NCBI GenBank assembly: GCA_043767805.1
Contig: JAYUGC010000182.1
Location: 1-48,425 of the forward strand
Origin: Pseudomonadota bacterium
GTDB taxonomy: Bacteria > Bdellovibrionota > FAC87 > UBA2466
Direction: 5' to 3'
Length of the DNA: 48,425 bases
Part shown: positions 11,496-45,713 of the stretch, piece by piece
Position numbering within the stretch: position 1 is the stretch's first letter
How the letters are laid out: each line of letters begins with the position of its first letter
The notes under the pieces: model-generated
The model's input: the letters and a program-made list of their open reading frames with translations, nothing else
What the model was told of the DNA's origin: nothing
Databases searched by the model: none
Position numbers and translations under genes: made by a program

Positions 11496-12713
11496 TCAGG
11501 CCGAGCGGGCGTAGCTTCGGAAGAGTGGCAGCTGGCGGGAAAAACGTTCCGAGACAAAAAGGAGGCAAGAAGTGAGCAAAAGGGTGAGGGGAATGACGGA
11601 AAAGACGAGCTGCTGAACTTCGCTGCCGCCAGTGACCCCTCTTTGGGCGGCAAGTCCGGCCACCACCGCGCAGGCAAGCCCTCGCGGCCCCATGGCGAAT
11701 ACGGTGAGCGCGTCGAGCTTCGGCGCTTTGAAAGGAAGAAAGAGCCGGGCCACTAGATACCGGGTCAGGAAAACGAGAGCGGTGAGCAGGACGGCGAGCC
11801 CCAGGTTCTCGGGATTATCCCAGCGGAGCACCACTCCCATATAAATGAAGAAGTAGACCCTAAGCAAAAAGGTCAGCTCCGCGAGCAGATCTTTTTCGGC
11901 TTCGGGCAAAACTTCGTCGTCTTGGAAGTGCTGGCGCAACTTCGCGGTGAGTAGCCCTAAATTGCCGAGCACGAGTCCCATGGAGAGCACGGCGAGAGCC
12001 CCATTTAATCCCATCAATCCCGCGACGCCGTATCCCATCAAAACCGAAATTTCCGTCGAGAAACGGATATGAGAAAGCGGCGGGGAATAGCGTTTCACGA
12101 AAGCAAAGCTGAGTCCAAAGCCGGCACCCACTAGAAGAGAAGCGACCACCGCCGGAAGCAGCGTCATGGCGGCATCGAAAGGCCCGACTCCGCCGCTCGC
12201 CGCGATTTCCAGCGCAATCACGCCGAGCACGACGACGAGCACGTCGTTGACCGAGCTTTCGAGCATGAGGATGGTGCGAGTCCGCTCGTTCACGGGAAGC
12301 CGTTTTACCAGGGGAATGACCAGGGCCGAGCTCGTGGAGCCGAGCGCGATGGCTGCGTAGAGCGCCATCGGCCAGGGAAGCGTGGTGAGACCAGCCGTAA
12401 GACCGGCCGCCAGCGGAACGAAAAGGAAAAAAGCCCCGAAGGTAATCTTGAGAGAGGTGACCGAGGCGTCTCTGAGCTGTGAAATCGAAAACTCGAGACT
12501 GCCTTCGAGCAAAATGACGACGAGCGCGAGCTCGGCGAGGAAGGGACCGATGGCATTGAAATCCTCGGGCGTGATTAGCCCTGAGACGGGCCCTACCAAG
12601 ATGCCGACGGCGATAAAGAGCAGAAGATCAGGGATCTTGGTGCGGTTAAAGACCCACCACAAGCTATGGCCAAGAAAAAAGAGCGCGCCCAGAATGACGA
12701 AGGCGGAGCTCAT
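11496..12713 (-). CDS. Cation:proton antiporter (CPA1/NhaP-like)
   Basis: About 12 TM segments, with IPDLLLFIAVGILVGP, LESSVND and MGPRGLA. ATGA overlap with rmuC. Confidence 0.85.
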   Translation of the reverse strand: MSSAFVILGALFFLGHSLWWVFNRTKIPDLLLFIAVGILVGPVSGLITPEDFNAIGPFLAELALVVILLEGSLEFSISQLRDASVTSLKITFGAFFLFVPLAAGLTAGLTTLPWPMALYAAIALGSTSSALVIPLVKRLPVNERTRTILMLESSVNDVLVVVLGVIALEIAASGGVGPFDAAMTLLPAVVASLLVGAGFGLSFAFVKRYSPPLSHIRFSTEISVLMGYGVAGLMGLNGALAVLSMGLVLGNLGLLTAKLRQHFQDDEVLPEAEKDLLAELTFLLRVYFFIYMGVVLRWDNPENLGLAVLLTALVFLTRYLVARLFLPFKAPKLDALTVFAMGPRGLACAVVAGLAAQRGVTGGSEVQQLVFSVIPLTLLLTSCLLFVSERFSRQLPLFRSYARSA

Positions 12714-13903
12714 GAATTAGTCGGCAGAAGCTTCTCAGCCGCTGCGGCGGCCGCTTCGATGGCGTTAGCGTCTTCTCCCGTGAGTCTCTGCACGGCGCTG
12801 CTGTAACGGCCGAGATGGGTGTCCGCCGTTTGATACGCGTTTTGGGCGCGGCCTAACTGGGTACCGATTTCCTCGAAGCGCTTTTCGAAGTTCTCGAAGT
12901 GTTGCTGAGCCTTTTTTACGTCGGTAATGGTCTTCTCGACGCCTTTTGCCATTTCGTAATAATTGCGCGAAACGGAAATCGCGTGGAGCGTGACGGAAAG
13001 CGTATTGGGAGACACCGCGAAGATTTTGAACTTCTGCAGGTCTTCGCAAAGCTTCATATTGCGCAATATTTCGAAATAGAGCGTCTCCGAGGGAACGAAG
13101 AGAAGCGCGATGTCGGTGGTGCCGTGCTCAGGATGGACGTACTTGTCGCGGATGGACTTGGCCTGGGCGCGCATCACTTCGGTTAAAGTCTTCCGGGCCG
13201 CTTCGAGCGCCGTCGGATCATTGGCCTCGAATAACGGCAGAACCTGTTCCCGCGGGAACTTGCTGTCGATGGGGAGAACTTGCTTCGGGTACTTGATGAC
13301 GGCGTCCACGCGCTCGGTGGAACCGGGCACGATGCGGTACTGGAGCTCGTACCCGTCGATGGGGAGCAAGTCGGCGAGCAGCCTTTCGAGCGTGGCTTCG
13401 CCGAAGCCGCCGCGCAGGTGGGGCAGCTTCAAAAGATTATTCAGATCATTGATGGAGCTGCCCACCACGTTCAGGTTGCGGAGCTGAACCTCGGCGAGAG
13501 ACAGGTGATGCTGCACCTTTTCGAACTGCTCGAAACCTTGCTTCAAGTTCGCGGTGAGATTGGTCTGCACGCTCGAGGTCAGATCCTTCATGCGCAAGTC
13601 GAGGCGGCCGTCGATCTGGGCGAACTTGCCTTCCAAGGTCTGCGTGGTGCTGAGCAAGCCTTGCTGAAGCTCCTGGCGGTTCGCCTGTAGCTCTTTGGCG
13701 ATTTCCGATCGCAAGGTATTCACTTTCGTGTCTTGCGTGCGCTCGAACTCGCTCTGAAACACGACGATGTTTTTCTGCAGTCCCTGGAAAGTGTCCTGGA
13801 GCAGGCGAAAGCCCGATTGAAGCTGAGAGTGATTGAGGCGCAATAAGAGAAACGCGGTGAGTCCTAAGGCGACGCAAACGACCGCGACCATGATCCATTC
13901 CAT
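12710..13903 (-). CDS. rmuC: DNA recombination protein RmuC family (start refined to ATG 13903)
   Basis: TM helix plus coiled coil, then RGGFGEATLE, RVDAVI, PIDSKFP, TTDIALLFVPSE and SPNTL. Confidence 0.9.
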   Translation of the reverse strand: MEWIMVAVVCVALGLTAFLLLRLNHSQLQSGFRLLQDTFQGLQKNIVVFQSEFERTQDTKVNTLRSEIAKELQANRQELQQGLLSTTQTLEGKFAQIDGRLDLRMKDLTSSVQTNLTANLKQGFEQFEKVQHHLSLAEVQLRNLNVVGSSINDLNNLLKLPHLRGGFGEATLERLLADLLPIDGYELQYRIVPGSTERVDAVIKYPKQVLPIDSKFPREQVLPLFEANDPTALEAARKTLTEVMRAQAKSIRDKYVHPEHGTTDIALLFVPSETLYFEILRNMKLCEDLQKFKIFAVSPNTLSVTLHAISVSRNYYEMAKGVEKTITDVKKAQQHFENFEKRFEEIGTQLGRAQNAYQTADTHLGRYSSAVQRLTGEDANAIEAAAAAAEKLLPTNS

Positions 13904-13968
13904 GGGCCGGACAATAACTAGGCGGGTTCTGGGTGTCAGCTGCAAAAAAGCGGGGTAGATTCCGGTTT

Positions 13969-16031: not shown

Positions 16032-16637
16032 ATGAGTAGCGAACTGAGGCAGAGCGTCAAAGAGTACCGTAAGATTTGGGAAGAGGCGGGCGTGGATTTT
16101 CTCTCGCCGCGGTTTTGGACGCTCACTCGGCGCGCGGCCCCGGCTCCCGTCCCGGCGCCTTCCCCCCCAGCCTTGCCGCCGTCGCCCGCGCTTCGCGCGC
16201 CGTCCGCCCGGTTTTTCTACGGTCAGGCGACGGCTGCCGGAAAATGCCGTGTGCTTTTCGTGGGCGACGCCGAAGGCTTCAGCGACGAAGCCGGTCAGCT
16301 GCTCGGCAAGATTATCGATGCCATGGAGCTTGGCCGGGAAAAAGGCACTTACCTCGCTGACCCGAACGCGGAGTGGTCGAGCTTTTTGCGAGAACAAGTG
16401 GGAATCGCCCAGCCCGCGGTGGTGGTCGCGCTGGGTCCCGTGGTGGCCGCCTCGCTTTTGGGCGGAGACGGGATCGCTTCGCTTCGCGGGAAGTGGCATT
16501 CGCTTCCTTGGTCGAAGGAAGTGGCGCTGAGAGTGACGTTTCATCCCGCCCACTTACTGACGGCGCCCGCCTCGAAAAAGGAAGTTTGGGAAGACATGAA
16601 GCTCGTCTTACAAAAACTGGGCGGAGCCGCTAAATGA
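16032..16637 (+). CDS. Family-4 uracil-DNA glycosylase-like protein, degenerate
   Basis: VLFVG, AGQLLGKII, VVVALG, LRGKW and TFHPAHLL are present. Fe-S cysteines and part of motif A are missing. Confidence 0.75.
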   Translation: MSSELRQSVKEYRKIWEEAGVDFLSPRFWTLTRRAAPAPVPAPSPPALPPSPALRAPSARFFYGQATAAGKCRVLFVGDAEGFSDEAGQLLGKIIDAMELGREKGTYLADPNAEWSSFLREQVGIAQPAVVVALGPVVAASLLGGDGIASLRGKWHSLPWSKEVALRVTFHPAHLLTAPASKKEVWEDMKLVLQKLGGAAK

Positions 16638-17896
16638 AAATCGCGGCGCTTTGGCTGGCGTTTCTCGCAAGTCTGGCCAGTGGAGCCACCGTGCCGGTCA
16701 TTCGCCTGAATGGCCCGTTGAACCCGGGAACCGGTGCCTATTTACGAGACGGCTTGAATGAGGCCGCGCGCCTTTCCGCGCCTTACGTGATTTTGGTTTT
16801 AAATACCGACGGCGGGCTTTTACCTGCGGCTCGCTCCGCCGTGCAACGCGTGCTCGAGTCTCCGGTCCCCGTGGTGGCTTTCGTCGGTTCCGCGGGAGCG
16901 CGCGCCGGATCGCTCGGCGCGCTTCTGCTCGTCGCCAGTGACGTGGCGGTGATGCATCCGCAGGCTTTAGTCGGTGGAGAACCTCTGGGCGTGACCGAAG
17001 AGTACCGGGCGGCCCATAACCGGTTCGAAGGGGAAACCGCGGAACTTGCCGATCACATCGCCCGTGCCCGCGCGCGAAACGCCCACGGCGCGAGTAAGGC
17101 GATTCACGGTAAAGAAGCACTGACGGGTGAGGCGGCTCTCAGAGAGAGTCTCATCGATTTCACGGCCGAGGATCTGGCGGCCGTGCAAGCGCGGCTCGTC
17201 GGGTTTCAGCTTCGGGTGGCAAAGGCAGGCGCCGCGGTTCTTCCGACCGAAGTGGGTCCGTTAAATGAGGTGGGCCCCTCGCTCTGGCAAACCTTTCTCG
17301 CCGGCGTTTCCGACTCTCGTTTGGCGTACGGCCTTTTCTTTCTGGGCTTCGTGCTACTCGCCTTGGAGCTTTCGCGGCCGGGAGCGATGTTTCCTGGCGT
17401 GCTTGGCGGGGCCTGCGTTCTGTTCAGTCTCTTTCTCTTTTACTGGCTGCCCATTTCGTATGGAGCGCTCGCGATGATGGTGGTGGGGTTCGCGCTGATT
17501 CTGGGCGAAGGACTCTATCCGAGTTACGGGCTTTTCGGGCTCTTGGGTCTGGGTGGCTTCATTCTGGGATCGCTTTGGCTCGTCGATACTTCGGCGCCGG
17601 ACTATCAGTTGCCGCTCGGTTGGGTTCTGGCGTGTGCGGCGACGCTGGCTGCGGTCGGGTTCGCGCTGAGTTACGGAGTTTTTCGCGGGCGCAAGCGGCG
17701 CCGGGCCTCGGGACTCGAGGCGCTGGTGGGAGAGTTCGGGCAAGCGCGGGGCAAAGTGACGCCGAGCCAGGGCAAAGTTTTCGTTCAGGGCGAGGTTTGG
17801 ACGGCGGTGTGTGAAGCGAGCGAGGAAATAGCCGCGGGCGCGCTGGTGATCGTGACTGGCGTGCGGGGGCTATCTCTTGTAGTAGCGCCGAGATAA
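16634..17896 (+). CDS. nfeD: NfeD-family membrane protein (ClpP-like domain, TM domain, OB fold)
   Basis: LNTDGGLL, GARAGSLG, ELSRPG..FPGVLG, SGLEALVG and GKVFVQGEVWTA. Confidence 0.85.
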   Translation: MKIAALWLAFLASLASGATVPVIRLNGPLNPGTGAYLRDGLNEAARLSAPYVILVLNTDGGLLPAARSAVQRVLESPVPVVAFVGSAGARAGSLGALLLVASDVAVMHPQALVGGEPLGVTEEYRAAHNRFEGETAELADHIARARARNAHGASKAIHGKEALTGEAALRESLIDFTAEDLAAVQARLVGFQLRVAKAGAAVLPTEVGPLNEVGPSLWQTFLAGVSDSRLAYGLFFLGFVLLALELSRPGAMFPGVLGGACVLFSLFLFYWLPISYGALAMMVVGFALILGEGLYPSYGLFGLLGLGGFILGSLWLVDTSAPDYQLPLGWVLACAATLAAVGFALSYGVFRGRKRRRASGLEALVGEFGQARGKVTPSQGKVFVQGEVWTAVCEASEEIAAGALVIVTGVRGLSLVVAPR

Positions 17897-17945
17897 ATTC
17901 AGCCCTATCAAACGAGTTCGTGATTCGCGGATCGCCCGGCTGAAT
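17897..17945. repeat. Partial arm of the palindromic repeat family (ATTCAGC-N34-GGCTGAAT)
   Basis: Same motifs, spacing and internal CGCGGA as the full arms. It starts immediately after the nfeD stop codon. Confidence 0.7.
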
Positions 17946-17963
17946 GAGAAGGATGCGCGTGCC

Positions 17964-18200
17964 GTTCAGCCCCTCGGAAGAAACCTAAGTGGCGCGGACA
18001 AGCCGGCTGAACCGGGTAGGTAAAAGTCGTGAGGGCGAAAGACGTGCCCGGCGGCTGTTCGTATCTTAAAAGGTAGCGCCCTACCTTTTAAGTTACTCGG
18101 AAGGGGAGTCGGGCAAGTCTTGCGACCTCTCGCTGCTTTCCTCGCCGGTTCAGCCTGTGCAACCGCGCTGCTAAGCTGGTCGAGAGGGGCTGAACTGCTC
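17964..18200. repeat. Palindromic element A: two inverted ~90-bp arms with a central perfect 12-bp hairpin
   Basis: GTTCAGC 17964, GGCTGAACCGG 18005, GCCCG 18046, hairpin 18065-18092, CGGGCAAGTC 18110, CCTCGCCGGTTCAGCC 18140 and GCTGAAC 18189. Confidence 0.85.
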
Positions 18201-18986
18201 TCAAAGAGCATCCCCAATCCCATACATCCCCGACCGATCGTACATCGGAATCACCTTCGGCAGCTGCGCCTGCAGCGCCTCTTGCCGAGTGCCGCTCGCC
18301 GGATGGGTCGACAGAAACTGCGGCGGGGCCGAACCGCCCGCCTTGGCAAAACGTCCCCAGAACCGGGGCGCCTCGCGCGGATCGTACCCGGCGCGCGCCA
18401 TATAGATGAGCCCGATTTCATCCGCTTCCGATTCATTCCCGCGGCTAAAGGGCAGAGCGATACCAATCTGCGCGCCAAGGCCCAGCGCACCCATGATCAA
18501 ATTCTTTTTCTGCGGATCGCTCCCGCCGAGAAGCGTTCCTAAAGCCGAGACTCCGAGCTGCGTCCCCATCGCTTGAGTGATGCGCTGACCGCCGTGTCTC
18601 GCGGTGGCGTGCGCTACTTCGTGTCCCATGACCGCGGCCATGCTAGCTTCGTTTTGGAGAAACGGAATGATGCCGGTGTAGAAGGCGACTTTGCCGCCGG
18701 GAAGGCAGAAGGCGTTCGCTTCCTTGGACTCGATGAGGCGGAATTCCCACTGGTACTCGGGCTTATTCGCCACGGCCGCGATGCGCTTGCCGACCCGTTG
18801 AAGGATCGCGTTCCACTTGGCGTTGGTGGAAACCCGCTCTTTTTGCAGGACCTCGGTGTAGGCCTGGTTGCCGAGCTGAACCTCTTCGCTTTCGCTAGTG
18901 ACGATGAAAGCACGGCGTCCCGTTTCGGGAGTAGTTACGCAAGCGGTGAGTGAGAGGAGGAGACCGAGAAGGATCGCGTTTCGCAT
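18201..18986 (-). CDS. M48-family zinc metallopeptidase lipoprotein (Oma1/LoiP-like)
   Basis: Lipobox LTAC, NAFCLPGGK, HEVAH, ESEADEIG and FLSTHP. Confidence 0.92.
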   Translation of the reverse strand: MRNAILLGLLLSLTACVTTPETGRRAFIVTSESEEVQLGNQAYTEVLQKERVSTNAKWNAILQRVGKRIAAVANKPEYQWEFRLIESKEANAFCLPGGKVAFYTGIIPFLQNEASMAAVMGHEVAHATARHGGQRITQAMGTQLGVSALGTLLGGSDPQKKNLIMGALGLGAQIGIALPFSRGNESEADEIGLIYMARAGYDPREAPRFWGRFAKAGGSAPPQFLSTHPASGTRQEALQAQLPKVIPMYDRSGMYGIGDAL

Positions 18987-18998
18987 TCAGCGAAAATA

Positions 18999-19199
18999 GA
19001 GCAGTTCAGCGGCAATAGGCAAGCTTGAGGGCACGGATAAATAGGCTGAACCGGCGAGGAAAACGGCTTGAGACTAAAAACGGCGCCCGATTTGACCGAC
19101 AGGCCGCTCCGGGCAAGTCATGCGCCTCGATGCTATTAGCCTCGCCAGTTCAGCCTCCTAATCCGCGCCGCCGAGTTTTTTTAAGCGGCTGAACCGCTC
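18999..19199. repeat. Palindromic element B, homologous to element A
   Basis: GAGCAGTTCAGC 18999, GGCTGAACCGGCGAGG 19044, GCCCG 19085, CGGGCAAGTC 19110, CCTCGCCAGTTCAGCC 19140 and GCTGAAC 19188. Confidence 0.85.
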
Positions 19200-20115
19200 A
19201 TTTCAACCAACCGCGCTTGCGGAACCAAACGTAGAGCCCACCCGCGATGACCGCCATGACTCCCAATACGACGGGATAGCCCCACTTCGAGTTCAGCTCC
19301 GGCATGAAATGGAAATTCATGCCGTAGACGCCGACGATAAAAGTGAGCGGCATGAAAAAGACGGAGAAGACCGTCAAGACCCGCATGATCTCGTTCGTGC
19401 GATGGGACGCGAGCGAGATGTGCGTGCTGAGCAGGGTAGTCACATCTTCGGTGAGCTCGTCCGCCCACCCTTGCAGTCGCTCCGCTTCCTCTTTCAGATC
19501 CTGAACGAAAGGGGCGAGGGCAGGGGGCGCCTCGTGCAAGCGTGGGATGAGATCCAACGTCTGGCGGAGCACCCTGCGGTACACCGAGGCCCGACGCTTT
19601 AAAAAATACATCTCTTCCAGAATCTGGCCTTCCGCCAGGTTATTGAAGATGCGGACCTCGAACTGCTCGAACCCGGTGTCGGCTTCGGCCAAAGCGAGAT
19701 CGAAGCTCAAGATGGCCTCGCGAAACAGATCGAGCACCACCGGAAAAAGCGAGTCCGTGGAAAGATCCGTGCTCTCCGACCAGCGCGCCCGAAGCCGTGC
19801 CATGAGAGACGCTTCCTTGCGGTGAATCGTGATGAGCCATTTCTCGTCGATAAAGAGCGAGACCTTCCGAGTCAGCTCCATGACGGTGTCGTTCTCGGCT
19901 CTTTTGAGCGCCTTCTCATCCAGGTGGCGCAAGATGATGAACTTGCGGGTCCCGATCTTCTCGTACTTCGGTAAATGCCGCGGCTCGAGGCAGTCTTTCA
20001 CCCAAGTGGGATGCAGGCCGTACTCTGTGGCGAGCTGCTTGGTTTCCTCCGGGGACGGCGAACACACATCGATCCATCTGAGGCCGTTCGCGAAGGTGAC
20101 AACGGAATGAATCAT
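19198..20115 (-). CDS. corA: CorA-family Mg2+/Co2+ transporter
   Basis: YGMNF..MPEL signature with two C-terminal TM helices. Confidence 0.92.
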   Translation of the reverse strand: MIHSVVTFANGLRWIDVCSPSPEETKQLATEYGLHPTWVKDCLEPRHLPKYEKIGTRKFIILRHLDEKALKRAENDTVMELTRKVSLFIDEKWLITIHRKEASLMARLRARWSESTDLSTDSLFPVVLDLFREAILSFDLALAEADTGFEQFEVRIFNNLAEGQILEEMYFLKRRASVYRRVLRQTLDLIPRLHEAPPALAPFVQDLKEEAERLQGWADELTEDVTTLLSTHISLASHRTNEIMRVLTVFSVFFMPLTFIVGVYGMNFHFMPELNSKWGYPVVLGVMAVIAGGLYVWFRKRGWLK

Positions 20116-21266
20116 CGTTTCGCTCCTTTTCCGCAGCGGAGCGTTTTCTCCCGGCCGAAGATGATCCGGCTAATCCAGCGGTACTTGCCGGCGGCGATGG
20201 GCTTTTTCCTGAAACAGAATCTCTCGGGCGCAACGAGGTAGGCCGCGACAGCGTCTGCGAAATCTTCGGAAGTGTCGCCCGAAGCCGAGACGCGGGCGTA
20301 GGTTCTTCCCAGGGGAAAGCCCTCAAATTTCTTGCCCTCGCTATCCAGGGCTCCGATGACCGGATCGGGAAGTAGGGTGAAGGGAGAGCCCTTGGAGAGT
20401 TTCGAAAGGATATCGCCCCGAGAGGCCGCGAGTTGCTCGGGCTTCAAATCAGGAAGTCCCCATCCGGAGAAAGCCGCGAACTCAGGGACCCAGGCCGCTT
20501 CTTCGATTATTGCGGCCTTTCTCGCGGCGGCGTGAGCGAGCTCATGGATGATCACCAAGCGGTGAAGCGGGTTATTCACTTCCACGAGGCTTCGGGAAAG
20601 AACGAGCGACGCCGTCTCCGGGACATAAGCCGCAAGGCCCCCGTGTTCGGTGACGAGCACCTTGTAGATGGCGCGCTTATCCCAAAACGCGCAGGCATCG
20701 ACCGGGCAAAGTGTCTTCAGAACCGAGTCTAAAATCTTATGGGACACGGGCTTTGAGGAAACGAGCATCGCGCCCCGGTACACTTCGGCCGTGCCGTAAA
20801 CGGCCTTTGCCAAGCCGATCGCGGTTTTCGCTTTGGACGCTTTCAGCTTGGCGGCGATGGCCGGGTGATCCTCTCGGGTCGCCAGAAACGCGCGGAACGC
20901 GAGGTCTCGTTCCGCGGGTGGCACTTCGAGGCCGAGGTGCTTGAGGTAGGCCATCTGCAGCTCGGTGGTCAAAGCGTCGAGCGGCAACTCGGCGCACGCC
21001 GGGGCCATTTCCTGCTGAAGGACGAGCACGAGGTGAAGGAGCAAATCCGAAGACCAGGCCGAAAGCTCGGCTCGGGCCGCGTCGGGGATCGGCTTTTTCT
21101 CGAGGAAAGGCACGAAGCCCGTCCATTGGTCGAGAGCTCTCAAACCTTGGCTTTTCTGCCAGCGTCCGAGACAAGCGGGCGCCGCGATCCGTCCCTGCAC
21201 CGCCGGAGGCGGAACCGAGTCGGAAAAAGCCGACAAGCCGATTAGGAAAAGAAATTTCGCGAGCAC
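20112..21266 (-). CDS. Secreted hypothetical zincin-like metalloprotease
   Basis: Signal-like N-terminus, IIHELAH (HEXXH) and a downstream SEDFADAVAAY. Coupled to both neighbouring genes. Confidence 0.6.
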   Translation of the reverse strand: MLAKFLFLIGLSAFSDSVPPPAVQGRIAAPACLGRWQKSQGLRALDQWTGFVPFLEKKPIPDAARAELSAWSSDLLLHLVLVLQQEMAPACAELPLDALTTELQMAYLKHLGLEVPPAERDLAFRAFLATREDHPAIAAKLKASKAKTAIGLAKAVYGTAEVYRGAMLVSSKPVSHKILDSVLKTLCPVDACAFWDKRAIYKVLVTEHGGLAAYVPETASLVLSRSLVEVNNPLHRLVIIHELAHAAARKAAIIEEAAWVPEFAAFSGWGLPDLKPEQLAASRGDILSKLSKGSPFTLLPDPVIGALDSEGKKFEGFPLGRTYARVSASGDTSEDFADAVAAYLVAPERFCFRKKPIAAGKYRWISRIIFGREKTLRCGKGAKR

Positions 21267-22595: not shown

Positions 22596-24416
22596 TTGGC
22601 GAAGAACTACTTCTCCGATTATCCGGAACGGGTCGACCTTCTCACTAAATATTCGAGCATTCGCGATCTGGCTCTTCCCCTGGAAGAAGCCTTCGGCGAG
22701 CCGGGCTATTACAAGAGCCCCGAAGAAGCCATGGAGTTCTATAAAGGCGCACTCGACGAGATCGGGAAATTCGCGGCCAACGAAGTCGCGCCCACCGCCA
22801 ACGAAATCGATCAGACGGGCTGCAAGGTCATCGATGATGACGTAAAACTTCCCGATGCCTTGATGAGCCACCTCAAACGGTGCGCGGACTTGGGGATGTA
22901 CTCGGGCAATGTCTCCCGCAAGGACGGCGGGCTCAATCTGCCCCGTTCCATTTCGATGATTGCGCTAGAGCTTTTCGCTCAGGCCTGTCCCAATACCGCT
23001 TTGACGCTTGCCTGCTTTTCCATGGCCGACTTCATTCAGCTCTTCGGCACGGAAGCGCAAAAAGCCCATCTGCTACCCAAGGTGATGTCCAACGAGTGGC
23101 AGACTTCCATGGCGCTCACCGAGCCGAACGCCGGCTCGGACTTGGGAAAGTTGCGTTCGCACGCCGCCCGCGATCCGAATGCGACCGACGAGCGCTGGAT
23201 CATCAACGGCACGAAGCAGTTCATCACCAACGGCAATAGCGACGTGACTTTCGCCTTGGTCCGCACCGACCCGAAAAGCGAGGGTTTGCGCGGTCTTTCC
23301 GTGATGGTCGTCGAGAAGTGGGTGGACGGGAAACGCAACGTCAAGCTCGCGAAAATCGAGGACAAGGTTTGTCTCCACGCTTCGCCCACCTGTGAGATTC
23401 TTTTCGAAAATAGCATCGGCTATCTCTTTGGTCCCGAGGGGGAGGGCTTCAAGGTTATGGCGGAGCTCATGAACGGCGCCCGCCTCGCCATGGGCGCGCT
23501 CGCGGTCGGTATTTCCACGGCCTGCATCGAGGAAGCGAAAGCCTACGGGCGCACGCGCGTGACCATGGGAAAGCCCATCTTGCACCACCCCATGGTGGCC
23601 GACATGGTTTACGAGATGGAAGTCGAAGTGCGCGCCATTCGTGCCATGGTGATGGAAGCGGCTACCGCGTCCGACTGGATGAATATCGCCCGGAAAAAGG
23701 GCGATCAGGCGGCGTACCGCAAATGGAAGACGCGCTACCGCCGTCTGACACCACTTTGTAAGTACATGGCGTCCGAGCGCGCCATCGTGCACGCGAGAAA
23801 CGCCGTGCAGATTTTCGGCGGTTACGGCGTGTGTCGGGATTATCCGGTGGAGCGGCTTTTGCGTGAAACGCTCATTTATCCGATTTACGAAGGCACGTCG
23901 CAGATTCAGTCCTTGATGGTCCTGAAGGACACCTTGAAAGACGTGGCTTCCCACTCGGGCGGATTCCTCGGCTCCCTCGCGGGCGCTTGGGCCGAGTCGA
24001 AGCTCACGCGCGACCCGGTGAAGTCCTATCTTCTGCAAGCGCGTAACGAGCTCAATCAGGGTATTCGTCACATCATGGCGAGCATTCTGAAGGACAAGTT
24101 CAAGTCCGACCTAGAGTCCTTGAAGCAAAGTAAGATTCAGGAGTTCCTGAAAGCGTTCTCGGCGAACTTGGTGAGCGAGAAAACCGATCTCACGATGCCT
24201 TTTCTCTGTGCCGAGCGCTTTACGCGGATCACCTGCGATTACTACGCGCTCAAATGTATGGTCGATCATCACGAGCCCGGGGACAAAGAGAGCGAGAAGT
24301 GGATCTGCCGCTTCGCCGAGCTCGCGCTCCCGCGCATGCGGTATGAGAATACCATCATGGCGGAACGGCTCCCCGAGACGCTCACTTATTTGAAGGAGCT
24401 CCAGGCTCAAGAATGA
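22596..24416 (+). CDS. Acyl-CoA dehydrogenase (start refined to TTG 22596, SD AAAGGA)
   Basis: MALTEPNAGSD, INGTKQFITNG, MNGARL, QIFGGYG and IYEGTSQIQ. Confidence 0.93.
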   Translation: MAKNYFSDYPERVDLLTKYSSIRDLALPLEEAFGEPGYYKSPEEAMEFYKGALDEIGKFAANEVAPTANEIDQTGCKVIDDDVKLPDALMSHLKRCADLGMYSGNVSRKDGGLNLPRSISMIALELFAQACPNTALTLACFSMADFIQLFGTEAQKAHLLPKVMSNEWQTSMALTEPNAGSDLGKLRSHAARDPNATDERWIINGTKQFITNGNSDVTFALVRTDPKSEGLRGLSVMVVEKWVDGKRNVKLAKIEDKVCLHASPTCEILFENSIGYLFGPEGEGFKVMAELMNGARLAMGALAVGISTACIEEAKAYGRTRVTMGKPILHHPMVADMVYEMEVEVRAIRAMVMEAATASDWMNIARKKGDQAAYRKWKTRYRRLTPLCKYMASERAIVHARNAVQIFGGYGVCRDYPVERLLRETLIYPIYEGTSQIQSLMVLKDTLKDVASHSGGFLGSLAGAWAESKLTRDPVKSYLLQARNELNQGIRHIMASILKDKFKSDLESLKQSKIQEFLKAFSANLVSEKTDLTMPFLCAERFTRITCDYYALKCMVDHHEPGDKESEKWICRFAELALPRMRYENTIMAERLPETLTYLKELQAQE

Positions 24417-33685: not shown

Positions 33686-34933
33686 GTCCACCACTCTACC
33701 GGGGCTCCCGCCAAATTTTCCCAGATCGTAGCCTTCTTTTAGGCCGCTCAGCTTGTGCGCAAAGAATAGGAAGTTCGCCGCCGGGTGGGGAAGAGGCAAG
33801 GCTTCGCCGGCTCGCTCGCGCAGCGTGTGGTACTGCTGCGGTTTTATCGACGAGAACACGAGCTGCGTAAGGACGGCCAATGCCACCGCGCCTTTAAAAA
33901 CGGGCGTCAGCGCATACTGACCTCGGGGGGCGGCGAGCCAAAGCAGCGGTAAGATCGGAATGAGGTACCGCGGTCCAAAGGCATGCTGTCCGGCCGGGTC
34001 GTACCAACGGGCGTGGAGCAAAAGCTGAAGGCCCGCGGCTAGAAAGAGGCAACGCGCGAGCGGTGACCGCCAAGCCGCTTTCGAAAAAAGAAAGAGTAGG
34101 GCGAGAGGCGCGGTAAAGAGCAGTCCCTTTTCCAGGGAGAAGAGCTGGATCCAGAGCCCGCGCCACACACTCGTCTTCCAGACGTCGCTCTGAAACCCTG
34201 TCACTGACAGGCCGTAGCCCGGATAGAAGGGGCTTCCCCAAGCTCGCCACTGATAAAGCATTTGAGCGAGGGCCGCGAAGCCGACGGGTAAGAGCAGCTC
34301 ACCGAGCTGGCGACGGCGGATCCAGAAAAGGGGAAGGAGCGGAATCAGGAGCGCGTGCTTCGTGAGGAGAGCCGCCGCCGCCCAAAGTCCTGCTCGAAAG
34401 GGGCGGTCTTTGCTCTGGGTGTAAGCGCCGACGAGACACAGGGCTTGGAGTGGCTCGCGCAAACAGGTTTTGGAGTAGGGGAGAAGTAGCGTGCCGGCCC
34501 CCAGCGCGGTGGTAAGCCACAGGCTTTCCGTCTTCGAGTGCGTGCGGCGGAAGAAGCCGTAGACCAAAGCGAGTAGCCACGCTGTCAAAAGGGGATTTAG
34601 CAGAGAAAGCAGGAAATCGAGGACTCGGGCTTCCGGTAGTCCCGCACGAGAGATCCAGCTCGCCGCGAGGACCAAGGGCACGTCGAGGACGGTGGGCAGC
34701 AGTCCCATCTTCGAGTACCAGGCGCCGTAGCGGCCTTCGTGCAAGACCATCGTGTTGGGATACAAGGGCCTGAGACCGAAATCTCCGGTCTCGACGAGTG
34801 AGCGCGCGGTGAGCAGAGGGCCGGTCGCGTCGATCGAATCGTTATAGCCGGCGGAAAGAAGCACGAGGGCCACGAGCCACGCCAAGAAGACGAAGCGAAC
34901 CTCTCGCCGGCTTTGGGTGGTGGGCTCAGGCAT
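33488..34933 (-). CDS. GT-C fold (ArnT/PMT-like) polytopic membrane glycosyltransferase
   Basis: Acidic SID loop after TM1, YSK, LLPYS...EP, KGLLFTAP and GPRYLIP. Confidence 0.7.
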   Translation of the reverse strand: MPEPTTQSRREVRFVFLAWLVALVLLSAGYNDSIDATGPLLTARSLVETGDFGLRPLYPNTMVLHEGRYGAWYSKMGLLPTVLDVPLVLAASWISRAGLPEARVLDFLLSLLNPLLTAWLLALVYGFFRRTHSKTESLWLTTALGAGTLLLPYSKTCLREPLQALCLVGAYTQSKDRPFRAGLWAAAALLTKHALLIPLLPLFWIRRRQLGELLLPVGFAALAQMLYQWRAWGSPFYPGYGLSVTGFQSDVWKTSVWRGLWIQLFSLEKGLLFTAPLALLFLFSKAAWRSPLARCLFLAAGLQLLLHARWYDPAGQHAFGPRYLIPILPLLWLAAPRGQYALTPVFKGAVALAVLTQLVFSSIKPQQYHTLRERAGEALPLPHPAANFLFFAHKLSGLKEGYDLGKFGGSPGRVVDLSDARSLVGFNYAALHLRQARLQDFSAARPKTDAVTDVQKRREAPNAERSERTELPRLPRSQGAE

Positions 34934-35207
34934 CCCGGATGCTCAAGCAATCGTTTTCCCAGTGGGCGACGCCGACACAGGTGATGTGATGTTTGATGAT
35001 GCCAGTCTCGAGCCGATCCGTGCTCGTCCAGGAGCGCACGTGGATGGTGACTTCCCGGGCGAGCTTTTCCTCTCCGTTCTCGAGCACCCGCCAAACGGGG
35101 AGATCGAGCTCGGGATTCTTCACGGTGTCCGTGTTGAAGCGGATCTGAAATTTTTGAGGAGTGGCTTCCACGGCCTTAAGGGTAACGCCGTTGGACTCTG
35201 GGGACAA
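34926..35207 (-). CDS. 93-aa hypothetical beta-rich protein
   Basis: SD AAGGGGA before TTG. The stop overlaps the GT-C start (ATGCCTGA). Protein-like motifs IRFNT, WRVLENG and KHHITC. Confidence 0.6.
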   Translation of the reverse strand: MSPESNGVTLKAVEATPQKFQIRFNTDTVKNPELDLPVWRVLENGEEKLAREVTIHVRSWTSTDRLETGIIKHHITCVGVAHWENDCLSIRDA

Positions 35208-35252
35208 CAGAATCCCCTTGTTACGGGGTGCCAGCCGACGGACAATTCGGAG

Positions 35253-35753
35253 ATGACGGAATGGTCGAAGCCCCTGGCGGCGGGGGAAGCGGTTTTCTTG
35301 CTGCTGGCCGTCGTCCTTTTTGTGGCCGGCGTAAAAGCGGCGTATCGGGCGCGGTGCGCTAAGACTTCTGCCTCGAGGTCCGCGTCACCTTGGATGCTCG
35401 CCTGTTTCTCTCTCGTCTTCTTGCGCCACTGGGCACTCGAGCAGGAGGTCTTTCGCGGGCCGTCGGAAGCTTTGCAAAGGCACGTGGAAAAAGTGCCGGA
35501 GCTGGTGCAGAAACTCCAAGGCATGAACGACTGGATTTTTCATAACGCCATTTTGATTGGTATCCCGCTCGCCTTTCTCCTGGGCTTTCTCTTCCACATG
35601 GCGGCGAGCTTCGCGCTTCGTTGGGTGTTCCGCATCCCGCTCTTTATTCTGGGCTGCGCCGGACTCTTCATCCTCCATCAGATCGTCACGAAACGCGCGG
35701 ACGGCGTCGCCGAAGCCGTCGGCCACCTCTGGTCCACAATCAAAGGCAGCTAA
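35253..35753 (+). CDS. Hypothetical four-TM membrane protein (start probably ATG 35253)
   Basis: Four hydrophobic segments. The upstream part of ORF 34917 is antisense to the 93-aa gene. Confidence 0.55.
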   Translation: MTEWSKPLAAGEAVFLLLAVVLFVAGVKAAYRARCAKTSASRSASPWMLACFSLVFLRHWALEQEVFRGPSEALQRHVEKVPELVQKLQGMNDWIFHNAILIGIPLAFLLGFLFHMAASFALRWVFRIPLFILGCAGLFILHQIVTKRADGVAEAVGHLWSTIKGS

Positions 35754-35824
35754 AAGGTGTGTGGATACTTTTAGCCAGCGACGGTCCGAATCTTGTCGTG
35801 GCTAAAAGTATCCACACACCTTTT
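35752..35824. repeat. REP/REPIN-like perfect 26-bp inverted repeat; likely bidirectional terminator
   Basis: AAAAGGTGTGTGGATACTTTTAGCCA (35752-35777) and its exact reverse complement (35799-35824), between convergent genes. Confidence 0.85.
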
Positions 35825-35840
35825 GGCTCTTTTAGACGCT

Positions 35841-37640
35841 TTATTCGAGGGCGTTTTTGGCGGCTTCGAGCTCTTGCCAGCGGGCGAAGAGTTTTTCGAC
35901 GGCGGTCTGGGCGACCGTGATTTCGCGGAAGAGTTCCGTGAGCCGGCCGGCGTTTGCGGCAAGAGCCGGGTTTTCCGCTTCGGCGTTGAGCTTCGCGAGT
36001 TTTGCCTCGGCCGCCGCGATGGTGGCTTCCATGTTTTCTAGCTCTCGCGTTTCGTTGTAGCTGAGCTTTTTCTTTTTCTTTGGTGCGGCCGGCGCATTGG
36101 ACACTTTGGCGACGGGCGCGTCCTCGATGGTCGCGTGCCAGGCTTCCCATTGGCGCAAATCCGAGAAGGTCACCAGCTCGCTCTCTCCCGGAGGAAAGGC
36201 GAGGAGCTCGTTTGAAACCTGATCGAGAAAGAAACGATCGTGGCTTACCAGGATGACGGCGCCCGGAAACTCTTCGAGACAACCTTGCAAAACGTCCAAC
36301 GTCGAGATGTCGAGATCGTTGGTCGGTTCGTCCAGTACGAGAATGTCGGCTTCCTTGAGCATGAGGCGCGCGATGAGTACGCGGGCTTGCTCGCCGCCCG
36401 AAAGACGGCCCACCGGTAAATCCGTCTGCTCTTTGGCGAAGAGAAACCGATCGAGATAGCTTCGGATATGCAGGAACCGGCCCTGAAATTTCACGTGATC
36501 GCCCGACGGACAGATAGTCTTCATCAGGCTTACGTTCGGATCTAGGGACTCTCTGTTCTGCTCGAAATAGGCGACCGATAAACCGTCGGCGCGTTGCACG
36601 GTCCCGGCATCCGCGGGCTCCGTGCCGAGCAGGACGCGAATCAGGGTCGATTTACCGCAACCATTCGGCCCGAGAAGCCCGATGCGGGTGCCGGGCCCTA
36701 GAAAACAGTCGAGATGCTGAAAGAGAGTCCGGTCGGCACGCTTGCGCGCGATTTGCTTTGCCTCGACGAGACGCTTCGTGCGGCGCTCGGTGCCGGAGAA
36801 CGCCATGCGAACTGTGCTGCTCGCGTTTCTCGCGGAGAGGTTCGACACTTCGTCTTTTAAATCTCCCGCTCGTTGGATGCGCGCCTGCTGCTTCGTCGTG
36901 CGCGCTTTGGCGCCCTGGCGGAGCCATTCCGTTTCGCGCCGCAATTTATTGCTCAACGAATCTTCACGCGATTTGGAGACCTGCAAGATGGAGTCTTTGC
37001 GCTCCAGGTATTCCGTGTAGTCGCCGTTGACGTCGAGGATCCCGCCCGCGTTCCGCCGGTCGAGCTCGAGAATGCGGTTTGAGACGTTTTGCAAAAAGTA
37101 ACGATCGTGAGTCACGGTGACGACCGCGAACGGCGCCCGCGCTAAAAACTTTTCGAGCCAGAGGATGGCCTCGATGTCCAAATGGTTGGTGGGCTCGTCC
37201 AAAAGAAGGACGTCCGGGCGGCGCGCCAAGGCGCGGGCGAGGGCGACCCGTTTTTGCCAGCCTCCCGAGAGCTCTTTCACTGGCGTTTCGGGACCCCGGC
37301 CGAGCCCATCGAGACCGACCCGGGAAAAAAGCTCGAGCGACCACGGGAGCGGGTCGGCTTCGTCTTCTGCCCCTTCCAGGATGACGTCCAAAATGCAGCC
37401 CTCCCCAAGAACCGGAGCCTGCTCCAGGACCGAGGTCCGCAGACCCCGTTTCCGCACCACTTCGCCGGCGTCAGGGTCGCCTTTTCCGGCCAAAAGTCCC
37501 ATGAGAGTGGATTTTCCGGCGCCGTTCGGCCCGATAAGGCCCACGCGATCGCCCTGATTGATGCTGAAATTGAGTCCTTCGAAGAGAACTCGAGACCCGA
37601 AGGATTTTTTCAGGGCTCTGGCGGTGATTAAGACTTCCAC
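35841..37640 (-). CDS. uup: ABC-F ATPase Uup
   Basis: Two ABC domains (GPNGAGKST, GPNGCGKST, LSGG, DEPTN), linker EWLRQGAKARTTK and C-terminal KKLSYNETREL...RWQELE. Confidence 0.92.
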   Translation of the reverse strand: MEVLITARALKKSFGSRVLFEGLNFSINQGDRVGLIGPNGAGKSTLMGLLAGKGDPDAGEVVRKRGLRTSVLEQAPVLGEGCILDVILEGAEDEADPLPWSLELFSRVGLDGLGRGPETPVKELSGGWQKRVALARALARRPDVLLLDEPTNHLDIEAILWLEKFLARAPFAVVTVTHDRYFLQNVSNRILELDRRNAGGILDVNGDYTEYLERKDSILQVSKSREDSLSNKLRRETEWLRQGAKARTTKQQARIQRAGDLKDEVSNLSARNASSTVRMAFSGTERRTKRLVEAKQIARKRADRTLFQHLDCFLGPGTRIGLLGPNGCGKSTLIRVLLGTEPADAGTVQRADGLSVAYFEQNRESLDPNVSLMKTICPSGDHVKFQGRFLHIRSYLDRFLFAKEQTDLPVGRLSGGEQARVLIARLMLKEADILVLDEPTNDLDISTLDVLQGCLEEFPGAVILVSHDRFFLDQVSNELLAFPPGESELVTFSDLRQWEAWHATIEDAPVAKVSNAPAAPKKKKKLSYNETRELENMEATIAAAEAKLAKLNAEAENPALAANAGRLTELFREITVAQTAVEKLFARWQELEAAKNALE

Positions 37641-44849: not shown

Positions 44850-45713
44850 ATGGAAAATCTGCGAGACGACGAATTGTTGGCAAGACTGAAAGGAAATATT
44901 GGGCAGGAACGTTTGGGTCATGCGGAGTGTTTGGCTTATCTCGCTGAAGTTGATGTTAGGCAACTTCATCTCAAAGAGGGTTATCCTTCGCTGTTTCAGT
45001 TTTGTTTGAAAGTGCTTGGGCTTTCGGAGGCGAGTACCTGTAAGCGTATTCAGGTGTCGCGGATCGCGCGGAAATTCCCGCAGGTTCTGGAGCTCATTCG
45101 GCAGGGGAAGCTGACGATGAGTAATGCGAGCCTTTTGGCGCCCCATTTAACTCAGGAAAATTGCCAAGGCTTGCTGGCTCAGTCCGAAGGCAAACGGCGA
45201 TTCGATGTCGAAAAGATTACGGCCACATTTCCCGGGGAATGTAACCGCCCAGTGGCGAAGCCGAAGCCTGAAATACTTAAGCCTATCTCCGAGAGTCGAA
45301 CCATGTTCGTTTTTTCGGGGGATGATGAGATGGTTGCCATGTACCGTACCCTTCAAGATCGGCTGCGGCATAAGTATCCGCACGGCAAAATTGAGGAGCT
45401 GGTGAAAGAAGCTTTCGCCGTGCTGGTCGATAAGACAGATCCTGTGAGAGAGCCCAAGCGAAAAGTCCCCGTCCGAACTCCAGCCAAACATACCCGTTAT
45501 ATTCCTGTCGGGATCCGACGTGAGGTTTGGCGCAGAGATGGGGGCGAGTGCGGATATGGACTTCCGTCAGGCATACGCTGTGGTAGCAAAGCCTTCTTGG
45601 AGATCGACCATCTGGTTCCGTGGAGTGTCGGCGGTAGCTCGCACGATCCGCACAATCTAGCTCTCAGATGCCGAGGGCATAATCAACTCAAGGGAGGTGC
45701 AAGACCCGCATGA
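44850..45713 (+). CDS. HNH endonuclease with a DUF222-like N-terminal domain; possibly a selfish element
   Basis: N-terminus LAEVD.RQL...GYPSLF..C...LGLSE. C-terminus RREVWRRDGG.C...C...LEIDH..P...GG......NL...C..HN. GC is lower than the flanks. Confidence 0.85.
   Translation: MENLRDDELLARLKGNIGQERLGHAECLAYLAEVDVRQLHLKEGYPSLFQFCLKVLGLSEASTCKRIQVSRIARKFPQVLELIRQGKLTMSNASLLAPHLTQENCQGLLAQSEGKRRFDVEKITATFPGECNRPVAKPKPEILKPISESRTMFVFSGDDEMVAMYRTLQDRLRHKYPHGKIEELVKEAFAVLVDKTDPVREPKRKVPVRTPAKHTRYIPVGIRREVWRRDGGECGYGLPSGIRCGSKAFLEIDHLVPWSVGGSSHDPHNLALRCRGHNQLKGGARPA

Follow-up and report, generated by a model that had tools for sequence, protein, structure and literature searches.

Two imperfect palindromes, element 1 (17890–18204) and element 2 (18995–19203), stand on either side of a gene for an M48 lipoprotein metallopeptidase in the 48,425-nt contig JAYUGC010000182.1; the whole of this contig was analysed, and we call it the window. 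Both elements are built from a polar unit of ~95 nt that carries four boxes at fixed spacing. Tentatively, and at somewhat less than an even chance, we read them as two copies of an extragenic palindromic repeat particular to its lineage, of the kind represented by repetitive extragenic palindromic (REP) sequences, bacterial interspersed mosaic elements (BIMEs), REPINs and terminal inverted repeat (TIR) repeats. The architecture and position of the elements, the constraint on their boxes and their potential to fold into long rods are direct results of this analysis, and the existence of a repeat family beyond this locus is unproven.

A polar unit of four boxes, paired tail-to-tail

The unit is present in five arms, numbered A1 to A5 along the window, of which A1 is truncated. 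It is 87–100 nt long and reads GAGCRG-GTTCAGCC, then CRCGG 22 nt past TTCAGC, then AGGCTGAAC-YGGSKAGG and, after exactly 25 nt, GCCCG. The pattern TTCAGC-N{28,40}-GGCTGAA occurs at five sites (17898, 17965, 18149, 19005 and 19149) with spacers of 34, 34, 33, 33 and 32 nt; four of the five can be read on the opposite strand too, giving nine matches where 0.02 are expected and where none of 100 shuffled sequences reaches nine. Every one of the nine occurrences of the octamer GGCTGAAY in the window falls within 17897–19194 (3.3 are expected from shuffles, none of 100 of which has nine). The second box takes the form C(G/A)CGG. In the arm alignments the third starts GGCTGAAC and continues (C/T)GG(CG/GT)AGG, and (C/T)GG(CG/GT)AGG-N25-GCCCG is found in all four full arms with its 25-nt spacer unchanged. 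The 17-mer that makes up box 3 is identical in A3 and A4, with one change in A5 and three in A2. Conservation 5′ of GTTCAGCC reaches GAGCRG in three of the four full arms; at the other end, A3 and A5 have an extended 3′ box, GACTTGCCCG. From centre to centre the GTTCAGCC half-sites are ~41 bp apart, or about four turns of the helix, and the self-pairing of a unit is limited to an 8-bp stem around a 33-nt loop. A covariance model (R1) built from the four full arms scores A2 at 90.2, A3 at 95.5, A4 at 91.5 and A5 at 92.0 bits, and A1 at 15.3 bits (E 0.06). An earlier reading of the sequence alone, made by a model and called the sequence-only reading here, had delimited five arms; its coordinates, motifs and box spacings all agree with the sequence.

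Two units set tail-to-tail give an imperfect palindrome of 190–250 nt. In element 1 such a pair is preceded by A1 (17890–17945, + strand), which has GAGATAA-ATTCAGCC as box 1, CGCGGAT as box 2 and, of box 3, the first half only (GGCTGAAT), and has no tail. The stop codon TAA of the upstream nfeD-family gene sits within the 5′ flank of A1, and the closing pair of this arm is A:T in place of G:C, the sole double change seen. The pair itself consists of A2 (17955–18050, +), which reads GTTCAGCC-N33-GGCTGAAC and then CGGGTAGG-N25-GCCCG, and A3 (18110–18204, −), which starts 5 nt past the M48 stop codon, the codon itself sitting in the GAGAGCAG 5′ flank. Around the axis between A2 and A3 is an apical hairpin (18061–18096) of 36 nt, its 16-nt arms 94% complementary and its loop 4 nt long, with a GC core between an A-run and a T-run (fold z −2.8 on the + strand and −2.4 on the − strand). 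Element 2 is simpler: A4 (18995–19089, +), whose outer end is 17 nt from the M48 start codon, and A5 (19110–19203, −), which starts 3 nt past the stop codon of the neighbouring corA gene, meet tail-to-tail at an apex of 20 nt. The corresponding apex of element 1 is 59 nt, so the apex is a variable module.

Next to element 2 is a solo box-1-like copy, TTCAGCGAAAATAG (18986–18999, +; TTCAGCG-AAAATAG), that is 86% identical to the start of A4 and overlaps the M48 start codon. Together with TTCAGCGGCAATAG it makes a 14-nt direct repeat at 18986–19023, the two copies 19 nt apart, which may be what is left of another unit or may have arisen by slippage. The M48 AUG has no Shine-Dalgarno-like sequence before it.

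A coding role for the arms was considered and rejected. The open reading frames (ORFs) across the arms are short, differ from arm to arm and share only RLNRRGK, a string derived from box 3 and followed at once by a stop codon in A5. An 85-aa ORF runs across element 1, and a protein search with it returned nothing, the sequence of the window itself included, and is therefore uninformative.

Constraint on the boxes and folding of the elements

Pairwise identity of the four full arms is 54–65%, and the columns that are not invariant are only 27–43% identical; mismatches divide into transversions and transitions as 22:13 and 21:20. Outside the boxes the arms thus appear close to saturation. Of 103 columns, 39 are invariant, and they come in runs of 8, 7 and 5, with a sum of squared run lengths that was reached in 5 of 20000 permutations. 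Such clustering supports constraint on both the boxes and their spacing, and the pattern points away from recent duplication, much as the sequence-only reading had argued from motifs and spacing conserved amid freely diverged bases.

The same arms could be neutral relics of old local duplications, functionless now, in which uneven decay would by chance have left the box pattern. In favour of a relic are the small number of copies (four and a half, within a stretch of 1.3 kb), the lack of others wherever copies were sought, and covariation (below) that is not significant. Uneven decay is nevertheless a poor source of invariant columns this strongly clustered, with runs of 8 and 7 and a 17-mer box 3 amid 27–43% identity, and of spacers that keep their lengths, and we hold a neutral origin to be very unlikely.

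Constraint acts on sequence and not on pairing: partner arms match no better than non-partners (66 and 59 matched columns versus 63 and 65) and G.U pairs have no strand bias (6 versus 7 and 8 versus 12). Recognition of the boxes by a protein fits these counts better than selection for an RNA helix. Under the repeat reading, a trans-acting protein, its gene located elsewhere in the genome, would recognise the boxes by their sequence and so keep them. Candidates are an HUH/Y1 transposase, a transposase of some other class and a host DNA-binding protein. The unit would be mobile, and the arms would be members of long standing that have diverged independently, not copies made recently.

A constraint that is independent of pairing between arms would also be expected if the elements were a locus-specific array bound as double-stranded DNA, with an architectural or regulatory protein on the GTTCAGCC half-sites and accessory boxes, standing on both sides of M48 as a roadblock, a loop anchor or an insulator. 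Box sequence and spacing are kept among near-random spacers (N25 is exact in four of four arms), and the sites are confined to the two gaps around M48 and absent elsewhere in the 48 kb. Element 1, however, lies between convergent stop codons, where no promoter would be expected, and no sigma-70-like promoter was called in 17600–19500. Operators of eight or more boxes extending over 200–300 bp at the 3′ ends of genes would be unusual, there is no adjacent regulator gene, and the boxes match no binding motif known to us. An array of this kind is, in our estimate, distinctly unlikely. Readings of the boxes as sigma-54 promoters, extracytoplasmic function (ECF)-type promoters, DnaA boxes or boxA were rejected by eye, since spacing or motif varies across the arms.

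Folded as RNA, element 1 forms a rod of −136.5 kcal/mol (z −6.7 against shuffles) and element 2 a rod of −109.1 kcal/mol (z −7.2). On neither strand does a single arm fold better than its shuffles (nine folds, z −1.45 to +0.64), and the rod beats a fold forced into arm hairpins by 21–32 kcal/mol, so that the two folds are not near-isoenergetic. The sequence-only reading had proposed two mutually exclusive folds; the rods are borne out, being far better than shuffles, and the arm hairpins are not, being ordinary and strongly disfavoured. Any transcript or extruded single strand would form the rod, which would owe its stability to the shared boxes. Covariation was assessed over the 12 pairs of the arm hairpin and a short second helix and is not significant: a double change occurs in one pair, and 104 of 500 shuffles equal this. 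The covarying pair is the closing pair of A1 (G:C to A:U), and six of the eight pairs of the hairpin (P1) never vary. Because the rod dominates, the arm hairpins are not unusually stable and covariation is not significant, an equilibrium RNA switch between two folds, suggested by the sequence-only reading, is not supported.

Selection at the RNA level need not involve a switch. The forward unit past a stop codon, or the whole rod, could be an RNA element of 3′ untranslated and intercistronic regions, with a role as a determinant of processing or stability, a terminator-attenuator between corA and M48, a device for coupling or occluding M48 translation, or a motif bound by a protein. Each gene runs first into a forward unit, 1–6 nt past its stop, and the rods are very stable, as their z-scores attest. 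On the − strand the base of the element 2 rod brings the corA stop codon together with a point at most 12 nt short of the M48 AUG. This rod is followed by UAUUUU, 6 nt ahead of that AUG; the closing pair of A1 supplies one compensatory change. REPs of Escherichia coli that lie within about 15 nt of a stop codon reportedly stall ribosomes and trigger trans-translation. On the other side stand the covariation result, the shuffle-like folding of single arms on both strands, and partner arms that are no more complementary than non-partners and show no G.U strand bias; moreover, no gene precedes A4 and Rfam has no matching family. Nor does the orientation rule count as independent evidence, because a tail-to-tail palindrome automatically offers a forward unit to the genes on both sides. 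We consider an RNA element unlikely.

RNA folding has a place in the repeat reading as well. Transcribed as the 3′ ends of nfeD and M48 and as the corA–M48 intercistronic region, each element would fold into a long rod, which might serve as a 3′-end barrier, a partial terminator or a target for a double-strand RNase, functions that have been ascribed to REP-like repeats. Partial termination could take place at the UAUUUU after the element 2 rod, just before the M48 AUG.

We also considered the unit as a non-selfish, so far undescribed cis-acting module under purifying selection, recognised by a dedicated protein and marking, in a little-sampled bacterial lineage, the 3′ ends of a few envelope and membrane genes (nfeD, M48 and corA), a ‘3′-end regulon’ of sorts. 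The protein would recognise duplex DNA or duplex segments of the RNA rods, and the role would be post-transcriptional or architectural. Arms that are roughly equidistant from one another and saturated outside the boxes, exact spacers, and copies restricted to one gene neighbourhood all fit this proposal, which we nonetheless rate as quite unlikely.

Gene neighbourhood and search for further copies

The nfeD-family gene (16634–17896, +; Pfam NfeD_membrane, NfeD and NfeD1b_N) and the M48 gene (18201–18986, −; Pfam Peptidase_M48, 2.8e-37), which lies between the two elements, are convergent, and element 1 occupies all of the 304-nt gap between them. The gap between M48 and the gene for the CorA Mg2+/Co2+ channel (19198–20115, −; Pfam CorA, 1.5e-62; TIGR00383, 185.8 bits) is unidirectional, 211 nt long and occupied by element 2. 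The stop codons are TAA at 17894–17896 (nfeD), TGA at 18201–18203 (M48) and TGA at 19198–19200 (corA), and the M48 start codon is at 18984–18986 on the − strand. Past each of the three stop codons, at a distance of 1–6 nt, is the 5′ end of a forward-oriented unit, in accordance with the earlier remark that the element ends abut these codons.

In an alignment of 13 orthologues M48 has the same N- and C-termini as its 12 relatives, so the elements did not reshape the M48 ORF. The closest M48 relative is 81% identical. For CorA, a collection of 5.8 billion proteins yielded only five relatives at 68–73% identity, the next being at 51% or less and some of them labelled as Gemmatimonadales metagenome-assembled genomes (MAGs), which points to a sparsely sampled lineage behind the window. 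Three relatives, at 71–81% protein identity, appear to share the corA–M48 linkage, judging from M48 and CorA relatives on contigs of matching length (4992, 5465 and 83032 nt) and source; the pair would then be ancestral, which argues against M48 as a recently delivered cassette.

These data bear directly on a further explanation, in which the elements are site-specific recombination sites, attC-like or other, and M48 is an excisable or invertible cassette. Two complex palindromes do bracket exactly one gene, inverted cores ending AAC and beginning GTT are kept around a variable centre, and the inner palindromes, GGCTGAAC...GTTCAGCC, are about 112 nt long in element 2 and 151 nt in element 1. 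Yet the cores fit the attC consensus at only six of seven positions, the outer core copies have no attC counterpart, the window contains no integrase or recombinase, and there is a single ‘cassette’ in place of an array. With M48 termini like those of its orthologues, and a linkage to corA that argues for vertical inheritance, recombination sites seem to us extremely unlikely.

Upstream of corA, with a 4-nt overlap of its start, is a 384-aa ORF (20112–21266, −) that belongs to no Pfam or NCBIfam family. It gave only weak metallopeptidase-like hints (SprT-like and YgjP-like, E ~0.1), and its neighbours in a protein atlas, with Peptidase_Mx in 12–18% of members, gave no usable lead. On the other side, 4 kb from the elements, is an RmuC-family gene (12710–13945, −). 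RmuC proteins are connected with keeping recombination at short inverted repeats in check, and the presence of the gene here is probably coincidental.

Several results weigh against the repeat reading, and the differences from known families given in the last section add to them. Many dispersed copies are the defining trait of such repeats, and none were seen in the regions searched. With filters off, R1 detected no additional copy in the remaining 47 kb of the window, where nothing exceeds 11 bits save reverse readings of the arms, and about 14 other intergenic gaps longer than 80 nt contain neither a copy nor a related palindrome. Solo boxes are likewise absent from the rest of the window at up to three mismatches for box 3 and two for box 1, the one match (at 24359) being within chance. 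Outside the window, 185,579 species-representative genomes, the source genome not among them, were scanned with one exact 20-base pattern that all four full arms meet; this returned 15 single matches in unrelated phyla at 14–24 bits, against a chance expectation of 6–15, and the best-scoring of them lies within an ORF. With both elements as queries, blastn in distant mode was likewise negative against 72,556 plasmids and 50,697 phage records. The 35 window ORFs of at least 80 aa include no transposase, no Y1, HUH or RAYT protein, no integrase and no resolvase, in line with the earlier statement that the window holds no cognate enzyme. Consensus scans of 17600–19500 called no promoter within the elements and no terminator within them, the three terminator sites that were called being all coding, with 2.1 expected. 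Finally, both elements occupy adjacent gaps of one gene and none is found elsewhere, which suggests a local function or a local duplication at least as strongly as a dispersed repeat; since about 14 other gaps are empty, the locus-specific readings stay alive.

The apical hairpin of element 1 and the rod of element 2 fall outside the stem and loop limits of the terminator scan. By eye, A/T runs flank the hairpin on both sides, and UAUUUU follows the rod on the − strand. The hairpin is a plausible candidate for a weak bidirectional terminator serving the convergent nfeD and M48 genes.

Comparison of the whole window with Rfam 15 gave no match at gathering score. At a permissive E-value the interval 17700–19400 gave only PreQ1 at 19166–19203 (20.5 bits, where the gathering score is 39; E 0.3), which we take as chance since it is below threshold. 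An origin from tRNA or tmRNA was rejected, none being found, and a literature search on the box strings returned only unrelated primer-like matches. The sequence-only reading had spoken of an element family and, as one candidate, of an RNA switch, and had itself named the lack of further copies and of covariation as the outcome that would tell against it. As no further copies were found and covariation is not significant, on those terms the family claim fails and the switch is unsupported, within the data reached.

If the unit proves to be dispersed in its genome, it would be one more lineage-specific family of extragenic palindromes, notable for its four-box unit of fixed spacing and for its poorly sampled lineage, and the repeat could lead to the transposase that acts on it. 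Were it instead restricted to this locus and kept in relatives, it would represent a new 3′-end module, recognised by a protein and controlling a membrane-protease and Mg-channel cluster, which is the more interesting outcome.

Two other features of the window were noted. A second palindrome, unrelated to the elements, at 35745–35832 has 30-nt arms that are 97% complementary and a 21-nt spacer (RNA fold −62.8 kcal/mol, z −13.7). It occupies the 88-nt gap between convergent ORFs at 34917–35753 (+) and 35841–37640 (−, an ABC-F type ATPase), has TAAAAGGT...ACCTTTTA in common with the apical hairpin of element 1, and may be a bidirectional terminator or a member of another palindromic repeat family. 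A 287-aa ORF (44850–45713, +), 26 kb from the elements and with no link to them shown, has a C-terminal HNH endonuclease domain (Pfam HNH, 1.3e-05) and is otherwise unannotated; a weak NCBIfam match to IscB (20 bits) covers the HNH part only.

Comparison with known palindromic repeats

One account of REP families (PMC3733652) locates most of them past the ends of ORFs, in convergent or unidirectional gaps, with close opposed units that can fold into larger structures, and gives the REP unit as an imperfect palindrome of 20–40 bp. Another (PMC3116915) describes REPINs as inverted REP doublets with a spacer that form hairpins in single-stranded DNA or mRNA. The elements resemble all of these in being extragenic and downstream of coding regions only, with one in a convergent and one in a unidirectional gap; in forming two tail-to-tail doublets with a spacer, whose rods stand well clear of shuffles; and in a mosaic organisation that includes the truncated A1, the solo box at 18986–18999 and the variable apex. 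They differ in their unit, which here measures 87–100 nt, pairs with itself through an 8-bp stem that closes a 33-nt loop and is not a palindrome of 20–40 bp. Nor is a GTAG or CGTC tag conserved: the only GTAG is in A2 (as GGGTAGG), and the only CGTC is on the reverse strand of A2. REPINs are mobilised by RAYTs, tyrosine transposases of the Y1 HUH type whose genes typically have the repeats on either side. Arms of about 60% identity, with no other copy in 47 kb and no RAYT in the window, set them further apart from REPs and REPINs.

The arms also behave like the ends of a miniature inverted-repeat transposable element (MITE), as inverted repeats of ~95 nt with conserved termini GAGCRGTTCAGCC in a small, non-coding element. 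Neither element has a direct repeat at its outer ends that would mark a target-site duplication, and the flanks extend the palindrome instead (AAAT...ATTT at element 2). Active populations of MITEs or REPINs are typically far less diverged than the arms at 54–65% identity.

In being imperfect non-coding palindromes of 190–250 bp the elements are like ERIC sequences (also called IRUs), Correia elements (NEMIS) and other MITE-like bacterial palindromes of 100–250 bp. Palindromes of the ERIC and Correia type are co-transcribed into long RNA hairpins, and they are reported RNase targets that alter mRNA stability. Those families, in contrast, have dozens to hundreds of similar copies, and Correia elements a TA target duplication, neither of which is seen here; the arms of our elements are much more diverged, and their conservation is block-wise.

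The likeness to attC sites lies in short conserved inverted cores around a variable centre, with geometry kept rather than sequence. An attC site is one bulged palindrome of about 57–141 nt with cores RYYYAAC and GTTRRRY, found in cassette arrays with or without intI. GCTGAAC and GTTCAGC each fit the corresponding consensus at six of seven positions. The elements depart from attC in their extra outer core copies, in the lack of an integrase and of a cassette array, and in a gene order kept with relatives.

TIR repeats, according to section 16 of PMC3733652, are partly or wholly self-complementary, ‘double palindromic’, and found as dimers or clusters. The same account (Di Nocera et al. 2013) has them flanking genes for TIRYT tyrosine transposases (the combinations being called TIRtrons), with moderately abundant solo families and with deep-branching soil phyla such as the Acidobacteria among their hosts. 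No TIRYT or other HUH gene is near our elements, and the GGGGWSAS of several TIR types is absent from the arms. Compared by description only, the elements nevertheless share with TIR repeats their long self-complementary inverted repeats, their occurrence as dimers and a sequence unrelated to that of the GTAG REPs.

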